Source: Escherichia phage vB_EcoM_Lutter
Reading direction: 5' to 3' (one strand)
Sequence record: NC_054924.1
DNA length: 64,000 nt
In this document: positions 501 to 5,277 of the stretch, one piece after another
How the letters are laid out: each line of letters opens with the position of its first letter
How positions within the stretch are numbered: the stretch's first letter is position 1
The notes under the pieces: model-generated
What the model was told of the DNA's origin: nothing
What the model saw: only the letters and a program-made list of their open reading frames with translations
The model's database searches: none
Translations under genes and position numbers: made by a program

Positions 501-2183
501 TTAAACCATTACAGTAAATCGACCAACTTTCTTCATTTGAAGATGCTGACCATATTCTTGCGGGTCATGGTCTTTATGCGAAATTATAAAAACATTAGTG
601 TTTTTCATTGAATTTATAATATTAGCTACACCTTTAATACCTTCGGCATCAAATGACCCATCAAACACTTCATCGAGTATTAATGTACTAATACTAACAC
701 CAGATACAATAGAAGCAATATCACGCCAAGTAAATAAAAGAGCAATATCAATTCTTGCTTTTTCACCTTCACTAAATGAAGCATAACTAAAATCTTCGCG
801 ACCACGGGATTTAATTGTCTCATTAAATTCTTCATCTAATGTAAACACATAATCCGCTTCCATTATTTTAAGATAATGGTTAATCTGCTTATTAAATAAT
901 GGAATGTACTTTTTAATAATAGCACCTTTAATACCAGAATCTTTGAGCATATCAGTCAAAATTCCTCGGTGGTATTTTTCCATTACTAAATTAGTTTTTG
1001 TCTTAACAATTTTATCAAGTTCTTCTTGAAGCAGTGCTATTTCATCAGCATGGTCAATAAACTCAGAAGATGCTTTTTCTATAGCCGCTTTAACTTTTTT
1101 AGCTTTATCTACTGCTGCGATCAGAGATTGCTTTTTATTGCGAATATCATTTGCCAACGACTGCTGAGTTTTAATATTATCTCGGTATTCATCAACAAGA
1201 ACTTTTAAATTATCACGATGTGTTGAAAGCTGTTCAAACGAATGCGTGCATTCAGAAACTTTATCTTTAATTTTAGAAACAACTTTATCACCGGAACTCA
1301 ATTGTGACAAACAGGTTGGACATAATCCACCTTCGTGATACATATTAATGACTTTATTATATGAGTCAATTTTTGATTTAATTAAAACTGCTTCTTGACC
1401 GATTTTATTAAATGCATCAGTCGGGTCTTCATCTAAAACAATATTAACTAATCTTTCATTAGCTTCTTCTATTTCCGATTTTAGCGTTCTAGCTTCTTTT
1501 GCCAAATCATCATACATATTTTGCAGACGAATAAGGTTTTCACCAGTTAATTTTTTCTGGCGTTCAACGTTATCATTATATATTTTAATTTGTTGGATAA
1601 TACTATCTTTTTTAACATCAAGCACTTGGTTTTGTGAATTTAATTCACGTATTAGTGCTTTATTAAGCTTATCCATTTCAGCTAATGTTCCTACCTCGAG
1701 CAGGTCTTCCACAAGCTTTCTTCGCGCAGGGGTCGACAAACCCATGAAAGGGGTATACCCTGCTGTACCAAGGACAACAATCTGCTTGAAACTGGCATAT
1801 GACATTCCGATAAGCTGTTCAAATTCTGCTTGGAAATCTTTACTGCTGGCAGATTCATTAAGACGTGTACCGTTAACGGTGATTTCGAAAACGTTCGGTT
1901 TTTGTCCTCTTTTGATATAGTACTTTTTCTCATCATATTCCATCCACAGTTCAACTAAAAGTTCTTTCTTATTTGTGCTGTTTATTAATTGACCTTTCTT
2001 TACATCACGAAATGGCTTGCCAAAAAGCCCAAATGTGATGGCTTCTAGCATAGTAGACTTACCACCGCCATTTCGTCCAGTAATAAGAGTTTTTTGAACC
2101 TTATCTAATTGAATGTCAACTCCATTTTGACCAACTGACATTATATTTTTATATTTTACTCTATTAAGTTTAAATGATTTCAT
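501..2183 (-). CDS. 46: recombination endonuclease subunit gp46 (Rad50/SbcC-like ATPase)
   Basis: 560 aa; Walker A GRNGGGKST, long coiled coil with CPTC zinc hook, C-terminal LILDEVFDGSFD; same length as T4 gp46. Confidence 0.92.
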   Translation of the reverse strand: MKSFKLNRVKYKNIMSVGQNGVDIQLDKVQKTLITGRNGGGKSTMLEAITFGLFGKPFRDVKKGQLINSTNKKELLVELWMEYDEKKYYIKRGQKPNVFEITVNGTRLNESASSKDFQAEFEQLIGMSYASFKQIVVLGTAGYTPFMGLSTPARRKLVEDLLEVGTLAEMDKLNKALIRELNSQNQVLDVKKDSIIQQIKIYNDNVERQKKLTGENLIRLQNMYDDLAKEARTLKSEIEEANERLVNIVLDEDPTDAFNKIGQEAVLIKSKIDSYNKVINMYHEGGLCPTCLSQLSSGDKVVSKIKDKVSECTHSFEQLSTHRDNLKVLVDEYRDNIKTQQSLANDIRNKKQSLIAAVDKAKKVKAAIEKASSEFIDHADEIALLQEELDKIVKTKTNLVMEKYHRGILTDMLKDSGIKGAIIKKYIPLFNKQINHYLKIMEADYVFTLDEEFNETIKSRGREDFSYASFSEGEKARIDIALLFTWRDIASIVSGVSISTLILDEVFDGSFDAEGIKGVANIINSMKNTNVFIISHKDHDPQEYGQHLQMKKVGRFTVMV

Positions 2184-2198
2184 TTTGTATCCAATTGT

Positions 2199-3053
2199 TC
2201 ACAATGAAGAAAATTCTTTAACTAAAGCCTGTAATGAAGCCTCTATTGGATATCCGTTCTTAACTAACATTTTCCTAAACATCACATGTTTAGGACGATT
2301 ATATGATATCCACAATTCATACAATTTATCTTTATTATCCCAATGATAGCCTTTTCGTCGAGATGCTATATGAGCTTTTCTAATCTCCGGATTTTTCCAA
2401 CTAGCAGCTACTGAATTTGATATAGCTATTTTATATTCAGGTTTTGATAAAGCAGCACGAACAGCCTTTTGGTGTTTAATTTTATTTTCTTCGTTATTAA
2501 ACCATTCCCTTGAAGCCATTGAAATTTTTTGTTTTGTTTTAAAACTATTTAATCTTTCTTTGTTATCTTTCCTATTTTTTGCTACTGAAAAATATTTTAA
2601 TGCCCTTTCTCTAGCAGCATTTCTATTTTGCGGATTTGAATAATATTGTTGAAGCCTTTTTGATATTGTGTCACTTACATCTTGTTTTATAAAACTATAT
2701 TCAGCAGCTATTAAATCAACTTCGGCTAAAGATAAATTTTTATATGTTTTTCCTGACATCATTCTATTTAAAGCATTTAGCATTTTTCCATTTTTACCTT
2801 TTGCTAATAAGAAATGTGCTTTAAAATGATTAAAATGACTTAAATTAACTAAATTCCATGTAGATTTTAAATATTCAGGAAATATTGATTTAGGAAGCAC
2901 GTGATGTGCTTCCGTTTTACCTGGAGTTTTAACAGTTGAATTCATAGAAATAAAATTAATGTAAGACTTGGCGTCTTCTTCACTCAACGCTAATTTTTCA
3001 ACTAATTCCTTTATTAAAAATTCATCATTAATGTCAAGTTTAAAATTCTTCAC
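2199..3053 (-). CDS. free-standing HNH homing endonuclease with NUMOD-like repeats (possible GTG start)
   Basis: 284 aa; HHVLPKS...NLVNLSHFNH HNH motif; repeated basic NPxxRxAxxxA-type modules; sits between genes 46 and 47. Confidence 0.65.
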   Translation of the reverse strand: MKNFKLDINDEFLIKELVEKLALSEEDAKSYINFISMNSTVKTPGKTEAHHVLPKSIFPEYLKSTWNLVNLSHFNHFKAHFLLAKGKNGKMLNALNRMMSGKTYKNLSLAEVDLIAAEYSFIKQDVSDTISKRLQQYYSNPQNRNAARERALKYFSVAKNRKDNKERLNSFKTKQKISMASREWFNNEENKIKHQKAVRAALSKPEYKIAISNSVAASWKNPEIRKAHIASRRKGYHWDNKDKLYELWISYNRPKHVMFRKMLVKNGYPIEASLQALVKEFSSL

Positions 3054-3258
3054 AAAAGATTCCTTTTAATGTATCTTTTAGACCATTCTATCATATCATC
3101 ATAATCTAAAAAGTATTCATCAAATTCAGCCATGCAAACAACACCTTGTGCTGTTTTTGATGTAATATAAATTATTCCAACATATCTAGAATCTTCTTCG
3201 GTATAATCAATGTTTGCTATGAATTCATCATTAATGTCAAATGTCGAAAACTTCACAG
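3018..3258. repeat. direct repeat pair bracketing a ~200-bp small-ORF cassette next to the HNH gene
   Basis: aattcatcattaatgtcaa exact at 3019-3037 and 3222-3240, plus shared cttcac; both copies hold a TGA/GTG stop-start junction. Confidence 0.6.
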
Positions 3259-3313
3259 TATGCATCCTTAATACAAGATACGGCCATATCTCGCAATGAT
3301 TTAGGTGTGTCAT
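3050..3313 (-). CDS. hypothetical small protein; start uncertain (possibly internal Met, MHTVKFSTFDINDEF)
   Basis: ORF overlaps the 3237-3500 ORF in another frame; N-terminus duplicated at the HNH gene start. Confidence 0.3.
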   Translation of the reverse strand: MTHLNHCEIWPYLVLRMHTVKFSTFDINDEFIANIDYTEEDSRYVGIIYITSKTAQGVVCMAEFDEYFLDYDDMIEWSKRYIKRNLL

Positions 3314-3500
3314 TATCTAAAATGTTGAAGTTAAAAGATACAGCCCAATCTGTACAGACCGTAACTTTTTTAATACAATTATCTTCAACCTCTAGCGGTT
3401 CAAACCAATATTCAATAATTTCTTTATGCCCAATATCATCTTTTACTTCACATTCAAAATGCTGACTCATCATAACATTTTTAAATTCATCAAAAGTCAT
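3237..3500 (-). CDS. hypothetical acidic small protein (87 aa)
   Basis: ORF immediately downstream of gene 47 on minus strand. Confidence 0.45.
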   Translation of the reverse strand: MTFDEFKNVMMSQHFECEVKDDIGHKEIIEYWFEPLEVEDNCIKKVTVCTDWAVSFNFNILDNDTPKSLRDMAVSCIKDAYCEVFDI

Positions 3501-4516
3501 TGTGTTGCCTCTACATATAACTGATTTGCATATTGAATAAGTGCTTCACGGTCAGAATCAGTGATGTCTGGAATTGCATTAATGTATTCTTCCATCAACG
3601 TCTGAAGAGATTGAACTTCAACTTCTTCACTGTCATCTGACTCGACAGAGTTATCAATCTTTGACACAACTCGTAATGAATGCACAACTTTTTCTAGTTC
3701 AGATTCGAACTTCGTCAGATTTTTGTCTACTTCAGTTACTATAACACGTACTGATAGATTTGTAAAATCTTTATAGTCAATTTTTCCTTTAAATGGATAA
3801 TGAATTCTACGATGCCAGGTAGTATTGTTTGGAATAAATTCCATTCGTTCTGTTTCTGTATCAAACATCCAGAACCCACGAGGGTCATTCTCGTCACCTG
3901 CAGTTAGTGTCCATGGTGTCCCAATATATCTGACGTTTGCAGCCTCAGAGATAGTATGGAAGTGACCAGACCACACCTCTTTATAAGTCTTAAGGAAATC
4001 AGGTTCAAGACCGTGAGATTTCATTCCTTTATAAAAATAAAATCCATTCAGTTCCCAGTGACCAACACAAAAAGAAGCAGATGAAGTTTTGATGTGCTCA
4101 AGAATTTCACCAGTATTTTCTTCGCACATCCAAGGAATTAAATCAATTAAACATCCGTCAAAATCGACTGTAGTAGGCTTATCATATACTTTAACATTAG
4201 GATATTTAGCCAAAAGCTCAGTAGAAGCATTTGGATGCATTACATTTTTGTAGTGGAGATCGTGATTTCCTACAATAGTATGTAATGTGATTCCAGCGTC
4301 ATCAAGCATTTGAACTATTTCACGGGCAAACTCCATAGTTTTATGTGTGATTGCTTTTCGCACATCAAAAATATCACCATATTGAATCCATACAGTAATT
4401 CCATTTTTCTTAGAATATTCTATCGCTTGCTTAATTCCATCAATTTGAATACCGCGAATCCACTCATCATCAGCTTTAACGCCTAAATGCCAATCACCCA
4501 AGTTTAGTATTTTCAT
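3497..4516 (-). CDS. 47: recombination endonuclease subunit gp47 (Mre11/SbcD-like phosphoesterase)
   Basis: 339 aa; calcineurin-like motifs LGDWHLG, GDIFD, GNHD, GHWE, SGHFH; T4 gp47 length. Confidence 0.92.
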   Translation of the reverse strand: MKILNLGDWHLGVKADDEWIRGIQIDGIKQAIEYSKKNGITVWIQYGDIFDVRKAITHKTMEFAREIVQMLDDAGITLHTIVGNHDLHYKNVMHPNASTELLAKYPNVKVYDKPTTVDFDGCLIDLIPWMCEENTGEILEHIKTSSASFCVGHWELNGFYFYKGMKSHGLEPDFLKTYKEVWSGHFHTISEAANVRYIGTPWTLTAGDENDPRGFWMFDTETERMEFIPNNTTWHRRIHYPFKGKIDYKDFTNLSVRVIVTEVDKNLTKFESELEKVVHSLRVVSKIDNSVESDDSEEVEVQSLQTLMEEYINAIPDITDSDREALIQYANQLYVEATQ

Positions 4517-5117
4517 GGTGTCTTTTCCATCCTAATTTAGCTGCTTTTGAAACCAGTTCTTTAATTTTTCCTTTTGTCCATTCAGGACCAGGAGGTTCAT
4601 GACATAACAATTGCTTAACTCCGTTATTATACCATTTTTTACCTTTATTATGTGATGAAGCTTTAAATTTATTTGACCTTCCTTTTACATAACCTTCTGG
4701 AATATAAGGCAAAAAGGCAGATTTTCCTGTTAATGGATCATGTGAATGTATATTTCCTTTACAATTATGAGAACCATATAATGGATGATTTTGTCCTTTA
4801 TTATCTCTTCCAAATGAACCTTTTGGAGCAGCATATGACATATTAAAGAATAATGGATTTTTAACTGCATCATGCAATCGTTGATAATATAACTCGCATT
4901 TAATAGCTTCTTCACGTGTATCAAATTCAGCTAAAATGCATGAATCAAATAAGTGAGGATTATCTAAAAGCTCTTTATTATAAATTTTCTTATACTTTTT
5001 AGATAAAACTGAACCATGATATCCAGCTAAATGCCTATCTAAAGACGTAGATCCAATATAAAAAGGAGGAAGTTTATCTCCACTATATATTGTTAAATAA
5101 GTTATATATTTTTTCAT
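4494..5117 (-). CDS. free-standing GIY-YIG homing endonuclease (seg-like)
   Basis: 207 aa; N-terminal YITYLTIYSG...FYIGST (GIY-YIG), C-terminal Gly/Lys/His-rich NUMOD-like region; overlaps end of gene 47. Confidence 0.65.
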   Translation of the reverse strand: MKKYITYLTIYSGDKLPPFYIGSTSLDRHLAGYHGSVLSKKYKKIYNKELLDNPHLFDSCILAEFDTREEAIKCELYYQRLHDAVKNPLFFNMSYAAPKGSFGRDNKGQNHPLYGSHNCKGNIHSHDPLTGKSAFLPYIPEGYVKGRSNKFKASSHNKGKKWYNNGVKQLLCHEPPGPEWTKGKIKELVSKAAKLGWKRHHENTKLG

Positions 5118-5277
5118 ATATCAAGAACCGTCATTGAAATGCAAAATAAAATTAATGAAATAAATCCATCTGGAGTGCTAAAGAACCCAATCCAACATGC
5201 TCTAGTGAACAAATAAAACGCTAGAAAAAGTATCACATATCCAAGAAATATCATTATATCAAACTCCGTATAAAGCT

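Follow-up and report, generated by a model that had tools for sequence, protein, structure and literature searches.

A 19-bp direct repeat at the gene 46 start of a T-even phage is probably a recombination scar on the leader of a predicted homing-endonuclease gene

Main finding

We looked at a 19-bp exact direct repeat beside gene 46 in a 64-kb stretch of phage DNA (64,000 nucleotides, hereafter the window). From the sequence comparisons described below, this repeat is probably a scar left by recombination in the leader of a predicted homing-endonuclease gene (HEG), free-standing and of a Mob-like HNH type. Our analysis suggests that the 17 nt of the repeat that lie inside the endonuclease cassette are the relic of a fusion to the start of gene 46.1, followed by a single unequal exchange involving the start regions of 46.1 and 46, which resemble each other. 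Such a history would account for an oddity of the classic phages, namely that the recombination-nuclease operon of genes 46-47 includes an HNH gene in T2 and T6 but not in T4. It would also give a base-level view of how a selfish endonuclease gene joins an operon without damaging it, by borrowing a start codon and its overlap and returning a recoded start.

The repeat and its locus

The window is a Tequatrovirus sequence of the T2/T6/RB51 type; its best match is Shigella phage SHFML-26 (99.1%), and T2, T6, RB51 and PP01 are close. Genes 47, 46.2 and 46.1, an ORF of 284 aa with an HNH motif (the HNH ORF) and gene 46 are all on the minus strand (Table 1), and the flanks of the HNH locus are otherwise collinear with T4.

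Table 1. Features of the gene 47-46 interval and neighbouring positions, numbered along the window
Feature	Position	Strand	Remarks
GIY-YIG HEG	5117..4494	-	Second HEG in the window, at gene 47
Gene 47	4516..3497	-	
Gene 46.2	3500..3237	-	87 aa; Pfam T4_Y03C family
Gene 46.1	3256..3050	-	DUF5487; 68 aa from GTG
Repeat copy 2	3222..3240	-	Native gene 46.1 codons 6-12 (F DINDEF)
HNH ORF	3053..2199	-	284 aa; Mob-like HNH homing endonuclease (predicted)
Original gene 46 start, now HNH codons 1-6	3036..3053	-	GTG and codons 2-6, T4-identical
Repeat copy 1	3019..3037	-	At the 5' edge of the insert
Cassette	2166..3035	-	870 bp; absent from T4-type phages; after codon 6 of gene 46
Spacer, HNH stop to new gene 46 ATG	2184..2198	-	15 nt; weak SD-like GGA
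Replacement gene 46 start	2166..2183	-	ATGAAATCATTTAAACTT, MKSFKL; cassette-borne
Gene 46	2183..501	-	Rad50/SbcC-like recombination nuclease subunit; intact
Two linked gene 46 substitutions	2120..2121	-	GGAGTT vs T4 GGGATT

Read on the plus strand, AATTCATCATTAATGTCAA has exactly two matches in the window, and no third was found in the 64 kb even when up to two mismatches were permitted. Dinucleotide-preserving shuffles gave a mean of 0.02 matches and none of 100 attained two, which confirms the exact repeat reported by the first-pass annotation. A short repeat in an AT-rich window might be put down to coincidence, but the expectation stays at 0.02 with two mismatches allowed, the two copies have their reading frame and their distance from a start codon in common, and the second copy goes strictly with the cassette, as described below; chance is hardly credible. 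In a repeat search the pair widened to 45 nt of 78% identity (3010-3054 and 3213-3257) with a spacing of 203. On the minus strand, copy 1 reads ..KNFKL DINDEF.. in the HNH ORF, which has a GTG start, and copy 2 reads ..KFSTF DINDEF.. in gene 46.1. DINDEF makes up residues 7-12 of both the HNH protein and gp46.1, and both copies sit 18 nt past a GTG preceded by AAGGA.

What had been described as a 71-aa ORF lying between the copies is in fact gene 46.1, which itself contains copy 2. The T4 annotation starts 46.1 at the GTG at 3256, giving 68 aa, and the alternative 71-aa reading from the ATG at 3265 leaves no spacing to the SD. The DUF5487 profile (PF17589) matched the small ORF with an E value of 2.3e-49, profile positions 1-66 falling on residues 4-69, and this full-length match to gp46.1 takes in the N-terminus encoded by copy 2. 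It had also been claimed that each copy overlaps the stop codon of the preceding gene. This holds for copy 2, which contains the 46.2 TGA (3239-3237), and fails for copy 1, since there the 46.1 stop (3052-3050) is 13 nt further upstream than the 19-mer and falls within the weaker flanking similarity. Further shared flanking bases are indeed present, as had been stated. However, T4, although it lacks an HNH gene, shows the same upstream similarity (AAGGA, N7-8, GTGAAG) at the two junctions, and this similarity is therefore outside any duplication: by this comparison, the AAGGA..TGTGAAG flanks are an older likeness of the gene 46.1 and gene 46 starts.

Anatomy of the HNH cassette

In T4, the junction reads AAAAGGAATCTTTTGTGAAGAATTTTAAACTT up to the insertion point and AATAGAGTAAAA beyond it, the GTG start of gene 46 (recorded as such in GenBank M10160) being overlapped by the 46.1 stop TGA. 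The window has a T4-like left half, continues with GACATTAATGATGAATTTTTAATAAAGG, the HNH sequence, TCATTGTGA, ACAATTGGATACAAA and ATGAAATCATTTAAACTT, and then rejoins T4 at AATAGAGTAAAA. Closer to the boundary, T4 reads CTTTTGTGAAGAATTTTAAACTT followed by AATAGAG, and the window reads the same left half, then GACATTAATGATGAATT and the HNH gene, then ATGAAATCATTTAAACTT followed by AATAGAG. Since TTTAAACTT is found at both ends, the cassette boundary may be shifted by up to 9 bp. The junction between the 46.1 stop and the HNH start, CTTTTGTGAAGAATTTTAAACTT, is base for base that between 46.1 and 46 in T4, and the HNH GTG overlaps the 46.1 TGA (GTGA).

The true flanking duplication consists of gene 46 codons 1-6, present as GTGAAGAATTTTAAACTT (3053-3036) and as ATGAAATCATTTAAACTT (2183-2166) with 13 of 18 positions matching, among them the exact 9-bp TTTAAACTT (3044-3036 and 2174-2166). 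The gene 46 product begins with MKSFKL in the window and with MKNFKL in its original form. The HNH ORF inherits the SD of gene 46 together with its stop-start overlap with 46.1, and the 3' end of the cassette supplies an SD-like GGA, an ATG and recoded gene 46 codons 1-6, by which gp46 stays intact.

The 19-bp repeat straddles the upstream edge of this insert. In copy 1, the TT at 3037-3036 is the final two bases of the original gene 46 codon 6, and the insert then opens at 3035-3019 with 17 nt (GACATTAATGATGAATT) that serve as HNH codons 7-12 and are identical to codons 7-12 of 46.1. Hence 17 of the 19 nt are within the 870-bp insert, at its 5' extremity, and the leader of the HNH gene is a mosaic, with gene 46 codons 1-6 followed by 46.1 codons 7-12 and then by the HNH body. 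A target-site duplication was considered for the 19-bp repeat and rejected: copy 2 sits 203 bp upstream in 46.1 and is also there in HNH-less T4.

The first-pass annotation had read the repeat as the footprint of a cassette insertion or duplication that copied a translational-coupling junction. Taken as an explanation, a block duplication would have carried the 46.2/46.1 stop-start junction to the front of the HNH gene, and the 45 nt of 78% similarity around the 19-mer, with both copies 18 nt after a GTG that follows AAGGA, can be cited for it. Against this, T4, which lacks the HNH gene, has at its 46.1/46 junction the very sequence found at the HNH start, through GTGAAGAATTTTAAACTT, the AAGGA..TGTGAAG similarity already exists in T4, and the bases of copy 1 between GTGAAG and the 19-mer are of the gene 46 type (AATTTTAAAC), not of the 46.1 type (TTTTCGACAT). 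We consider this explanation quite improbable. The claim of a copied coupling junction falls with it, the junction at the HNH start being the original T4 one and the addition amounting to 17 nt of 46.1 codons 7-12. The insertion footprint itself survives in part: the second copy goes with the cassette (7 of 7 genomes with it, 0 of 10 without) and almost all of it is inside the insert, although it is no copied junction.

The window holds two independent examples of this leader-capture design, the HNH cassette at gene 46 and the GIY-YIG gene, which is arranged in the same way at the start of gene 47.

Distribution and variation among phages

The whole HNH segment was present in 70 of the 517 phage records matching positions 2000-3600, and these are of the Tequatrovirus type. 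In the remaining records, T4 included, the query spans 731 bp instead of 1601 bp, that is, 870 bp are missing. Seven sequences with the HNH gene (HNH+: the window, T2, T6, SHFML-26, RB51, G2133 and N2) were compared with ten without it (HNH-: T4, AR1, ime09, JK23 and six IMG/VR contigs). Both copies of the 19-mer were found in the HNH+ group and the 46.1 copy only in the HNH- group, the second copy being carried by 7/7 and 0/10, respectively. HNH-less phages with both copies, which the first-pass annotation had named as the observation that would speak against its reading, are thus absent from the ten genomes.

The 46.1 copy was found in all 17 Tequatrovirus sequences, the window among them, and is exact in 13; N2, ime09, VR14 and VR15 have one synonymous change each. 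Among the third-position changes, all synonymous, are GAT in the HNH copy of T2 and N2 and AAC in the 46.1 copy of N2 and ime09. In RB51 the 46.1 copy has TTT, and the repeat is 20 bp long there. The two copies drift independently at synonymous positions, and therefore we see neither homogenisation between them nor selection acting on the nucleotides themselves.

This bears on whether the 19-mer could be a selected cis-acting element present in duplicate, such as a promoter, an endonuclease or operator site, or a control of initiation at the RNA level. The 19-mer does contain TTGACA, the sequence of a -35 element, both copies are placed just inside start regions, and I-TevI is described in a review of T4 mobile elements as binding an operator that resembles its own homing site (PMC2988022). 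However, natural isolates differ from one another at synonymous third positions of each copy, with DINDEF preserved, and the 46.1 copy is unchanged in HNH-less phages. Moreover, neither repeat site was among the promoters predicted by a sigma-70-type scan of 1900-4700, which gave 16 sites against 13.4 +/- 3.2 in shuffles, and RNA folds at the repeat junctions were no better than those of shuffles (z -0.19 and -1.11). A selected element is very improbable. More generally, RNA structure gave no signal at the four junctions analysed (z -0.19, +0.36, -0.23 and -1.11), and a promoter or terminator reading was discarded, with no scan site at the repeats and a count not above that of shuffles.

In the seven HNH+ phages, nucleotide diversity was 0.0095 for the cassette and 0.0257 for the upstream flank. 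Over the 5' 300 bp of gene 46 it was 0.012 in HNH+ (n=7) against 0.035 in HNH- (n=10). The substitutions at 2120-2121 are linked to the cassette, being fixed in 7/7 HNH+ and absent from 10/10 HNH- sequences. In this small sample (7 HNH+, 10 HNH-), the low cassette diversity and the linked markers fit a recent spread with co-conversion. The HNH gene is frameshifted in three of the seven copies (T2, RB51 and G2133), which fits the usual decay of HEGs.

Identity of the HNH ORF and its relatives

The HNH ORF is free-standing, lies between conserved genes and is variably present among close relatives. It was matched by PHROG phrog_655, 'homing endonuclease', with an E value of 2.4e-45, and by tblastn it is 30-36% identical to mobC and mobD regions (E 1e-11 to 1e-22). 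In an alignment with annotated MobC (PST), MobD (RB3) and two paralogs (alignment A2), H50, H51, N67, H76 and H80 are invariant, and the HH ... N ... H ... H catalytic motif of HNH enzymes is present in the window ORF. RefSeq labels the gene a homing endonuclease in T2, T6 and SHFML-26. Sequence searches of Pfam-A, NCBIfam and PDB gave zero matches to the protein. Literature searches brought up no account of either this HNH gene or the 19-bp repeat, and the portion of the T4 mobile-elements review that was available does not mention gene 46, 46.1 or RB51 (PMC2988022).

The closest paralogs, 44-45% identical by tblastn, were found in the 47-46 interval of two other genera. In Mosigvirus AV113 the order is 47-46.2-HNH-46, without 46.1, and the HNH protein is 45% identical to that of the window by tblastn (43% in alignment A2). 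The AV113 gene opens with ATGACGAAGACTGATTATGAAA, 22 nt that equal the Mosigvirus 46.1 start as found in HNH-less AV109; this start overlaps the end of 46.2, and the HNH gene is fused to the first 7 codons of 46.1. Its right boundary, at the TTTAAA of gene 46 codons 4-5, is at the same site as in the window. In Gelderlandvirus CF-SP2, a frameshifted HNH gene of the same family is located between 47 and 46, with an ATGA overlap directly after gene 47. Ahead of the conserved (I/L)xK..FPxWE there are about 6-9 residues in the paralogs against 12 in the window protein, and the leaders of the paralogs are derived from the locus. With leaders this short and locus-derived, the HNH family therefore habitually draws its first codons from the resident context. 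By the same comparison, the leader in the window combines two resident contexts, those of 46 and 46.1.

The repeat sequence is native to 46.1: it is there in T4, it falls in the DUF5487 N-terminus, and the Gaprivervirus and Mosigvirus homologues of 46.1 keep ..DDEF / ..HEF at the DINDEF position. The direction of transfer is therefore from 46.1 to the HNH leader. At the other end of the cassette, the first 15 nt of the new gene 46 start (ATGAAATCATTTAAA) are identical to the native start of gene 46 in Mosigvirus AV109, and the spacer GGATACAAAATG resembles the 3' end of AV109 46.1, GAATACATATG. These likenesses hint that the cassette was once inside a 46.1 gene. A native ATGAAATCATTTAAACTTAA gene 46 start had zero matches in IMG/VR.

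No further HNH relatives, intermediates included, were found in IMG/VR and metagenome contigs. A set of 5.8 billion proteins returned only a 99% cluster, a truncated RB68 copy and a MobC-like protein, with no intermediate relative. Phage Ac3 was tried as an intermediate, its HNH DNA being 71% identical, and rejected, the differences being synonymous changes to E. coli-preferred codons and not natural divergence. A native start of the family beginning with 'DIN' was also rejected: the paralog that starts with MDIN, beside an NTP pyrophosphohydrolase gene, has its first codons within the 3' end of the upstream gene, and we provisionally treat the MDIN/DIN match as a coincidence.

Proposed history of the leader

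In the history that we favour, the HNH ORF would formerly have been fused to the start of 46.1, right behind 46.2, displacing the body of 46.1. AV113, which has the closest paralog, shows such a 46.1::HNH state today. The fusion point differs, however, lying after 46.1 codon 7 in Mosigvirus and after codon 12 in Tequatrovirus, and therefore the Mosigvirus case is an analogy and a separate event. One unequal, in-register exchange between the 46.1 and 46 start regions (AAGGA-N7/8-GTGAAG....TT) would then have followed, with the crossover inside the shared TT, 18 nt beyond each GTG. Its products would be the 19-bp direct repeat and an intact 46.1 in the upstream position. The crossover would have had no more than 2 nt of microhomology, and past the GTG the start regions agree at only 12 of 18 positions. 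The same topology would be reached in another order, by a tandem duplication of 46.1 and replacement of the second copy by the HNH gene.

Neither of the two proposed intermediates was found. A synthetic query was built for the junction expected from the 203-bp deletion (46.2-46.1'::HNH-46), with which an intact single-piece junction would rank above two-piece matches. The best 12 of 69 full-cover matches all consisted of two pieces, with a span of 361 bp. IMG/VR, scanned for the exact pattern of this junction, gave nothing. Tandem copies of 46.1 were not found in the collection either (tblastn, 711 places in 711 records).

That no Tequatrovirus fusion intermediate turned up is in favour of a patch, in which the HNH cassette entered at gene 46 codon 6 with another leader and 46.1, at a distance of 203 bp, was the source of the 17 nt, either through template switching in break repair at the time of insertion or through a short ectopic gene conversion afterwards. 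Both routes would produce an identical sequence. The homology is indeed very short (17-19 nt) and placed exactly at the edge of the insert, the donor is adjacent, and break repair in T4 is given as recombination-dependent replication in the review (PMC2988022). Nevertheless, so short a tract would need two template switches or pre-existing similarity, the Mosigvirus sister HNH gene shows that real fusions to the 46.1 start exist, and the in-register distance of 18 nt from both GTGs follows naturally from an aligned pairing of start regions. We consider a patch unlikely, and retain the fusion followed by unequal exchange.

As to function, the repeat itself would have the sole role of encoding six leader residues. 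Judging from the layout and from what the review says of similar genes (PMC2988022), ribosomes ending 46.1 at the UGA would reinitiate on the HNH gene at the overlapping GUG, and translation of gp46 would then rely on the new AUG. The scar would give the history of the element and indicates where to search for the target of the predicted enzyme, likely at or near the gene 46 start.

A broader idea, which we put forward tentatively and hold to be somewhat doubtful, is that the leaders of free-standing HEGs in T-even phages may be readable records of residence, the element inserting a few codons into a resident gene, seizing its start codon and coupling context, and carrying a recoded 5' end. 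If this were true, the mosaic HNH leader would document a hop or unequal exchange between adjacent start junctions, and the 19-bp repeat would leave 46.1 open to precise deletion, so that the locus could switch reversibly from the Tequatrovirus to the Mosigvirus arrangement.

Comparison with known systems

The feature is ordinary, one more mobile-gene insertion of a familiar type, and not a new kind of system. The closest known system is the T4 Mob family (MobA-E), with which the window ORF shares the HNH motif; its identity to MobC and MobD is given above. Like them, it is free-standing between conserved genes and shows presence/absence polymorphism among T-even phages. The start of mobE, between nrdA and nrdB, overlaps the upstream stop (UAAUGA) as the window HNH start does; the review reports that 5 of the 12 free-standing HEG ORFs of T4 overlap the upstream ORF, and states overlapping starts with probable coupling for mobE and others (PMC2988022). 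Unlike the Mob genes, the window HNH gene is at the 46.1/46 junction, on a resident start codon plus five codons, its cassette brings a recoded replacement start, and its leader has a fragment of a second neighbour.

In intronless homing by SegF and SegG, which leads to localized marker exclusion and co-converts flanking markers, the HEG likewise adjoins an essential replication or recombination gene, and the reduced diversity and two linked substitutions on the gene 46 side are the pattern that co-conversion would leave. SegF and SegG, however, are GIY-YIG endonucleases with mapped cleavage sites, whereas the cleavage site and the homing of the HNH enzyme are putative.

HEG insertions within coding sequences include Aeh1 mobE, which splits nrdA, and T4 mobA, between genes 39 and 60. 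A further one, mentioned in the review, is seg43(25) in gene 43 of Aeromonas phage 25 (PMC2988022). The HNH insert is also inside an ORF, 18 nt into gene 46, and sequence brought by the cassette preserves function; in contrast to those cases, gene 46 is unsplit and gives one polypeptide, just six codons being duplicated and recoded.

Finally, as with the target-site duplications of transposons, the HNH insert has a short direct repeat at its two ends, the exact 9-bp TTTAAACTT. Unlike a transposon, the insert has neither a transposase nor terminal inverted repeats, and its 9-bp repeat is part of an 18-nt recoded coding duplication.

A second homing-endonuclease gene at gene 47

The window holds a second homing-endonuclease gene, of the GIY-YIG/Seg-like type, whose design is the same as that of the HNH gene at gene 46: the endonuclease gene takes the start junction of the resident gene and carries a recoded replacement start for it. 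The ATGA junction formed by the 47.1 stop and the gene 47 start was found to be taken over by the GIY-YIG ORF, with ATGAAAA kept and divergence thereafter. At its other end, the last codons of the ORF contain gene 47 codons 1-6 in a synonymously recoded form (ATGAAAATACTAAACTTG versus ATGAAAATTTTAAATTTA in T4). The gene was found in 64 of the 505 records and occurs independently of the HNH gene, being present for example in fPS-90, which lacks the latter.

Coordinates of features in the window
Feature	Position	Strand
GIY-YIG/Seg-like homing-endonuclease ORF, 207 aa, between 47.1 and 47	4494-5117	-
Junctions of this ORF	5114-5120 and 4494-4516	-
Allelic stretch of gene 46 (codons 6-21, 45 bp)	2121-2166	
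Palindrome in the HNH gene	2893-2913	

State of the HNH gene copies

The HNH gene is a pseudogene in many phages; the copy in the window is intact. T2 carries a 2-nt deletion, RB51, in which the gene is unannotated, a 1-nt deletion, and G2133 a 7-nt insertion, and in CF-SP2 the ORF is split. Within the codons of the HNH catalytic motif (EAHHVLP) lies a perfect palindrome with a 9-bp stem (GGAAGCACGTGATGTGCTTCC), which the scan scored as terminator-like on the + (antisense) strand.

In phage Ac3 (OK040907.1, locus 840-1770), DNA identity to the window is only 71% across the HNH gene and the 5' portion of gene 46. Nearly all differences are synonymous and shifted toward codons preferred by E. 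coli (CTG, CGT, AAC, ATC), and the first of them falls on the HNH start codon itself (GTG to GTT). Frameshifts were also seen. This segment looks like codon-optimised synthetic DNA rather than a product of natural divergence; it may stem from engineering or from recombination with a plasmid, or be an artefact of assembly.

Alleles of gene 46

When the window was compared with six other loci (L021, L022, L010-L012 and L014), two sharply distinct alleles of the gene 46 stretch, which begins right at the cassette insertion site, were observed among Tequatroviruses lacking the HNH gene. Besides the T4-type allele there is a second one, which differs by 13 clustered changes and whose product, RVRYQNIMSVGGNP, is identical to the Mosigvirus protein. 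The T4-type allele, with the two linked substitutions added, is the one present in all phages that carry the HNH gene. A patch conferring target-site resistance and a mosaic import are two possible readings of the stretch.

In Mosigvirus, gene 46.1 is wholly replaced by a related HNH gene (AV113 versus AV109), and codons 1-3 of gene 46 are GTGAAAACA in the allele with the HNH gene versus ATGAAATCA in that without. In Tequatrovirus, the same codons are ATGAAATCA with the HNH gene versus GTGAAGAAT without, so that the ATGAAATCA start belongs to the HNH-less side in Mosigvirus and to the HNH-bearing side in Tequatrovirus.
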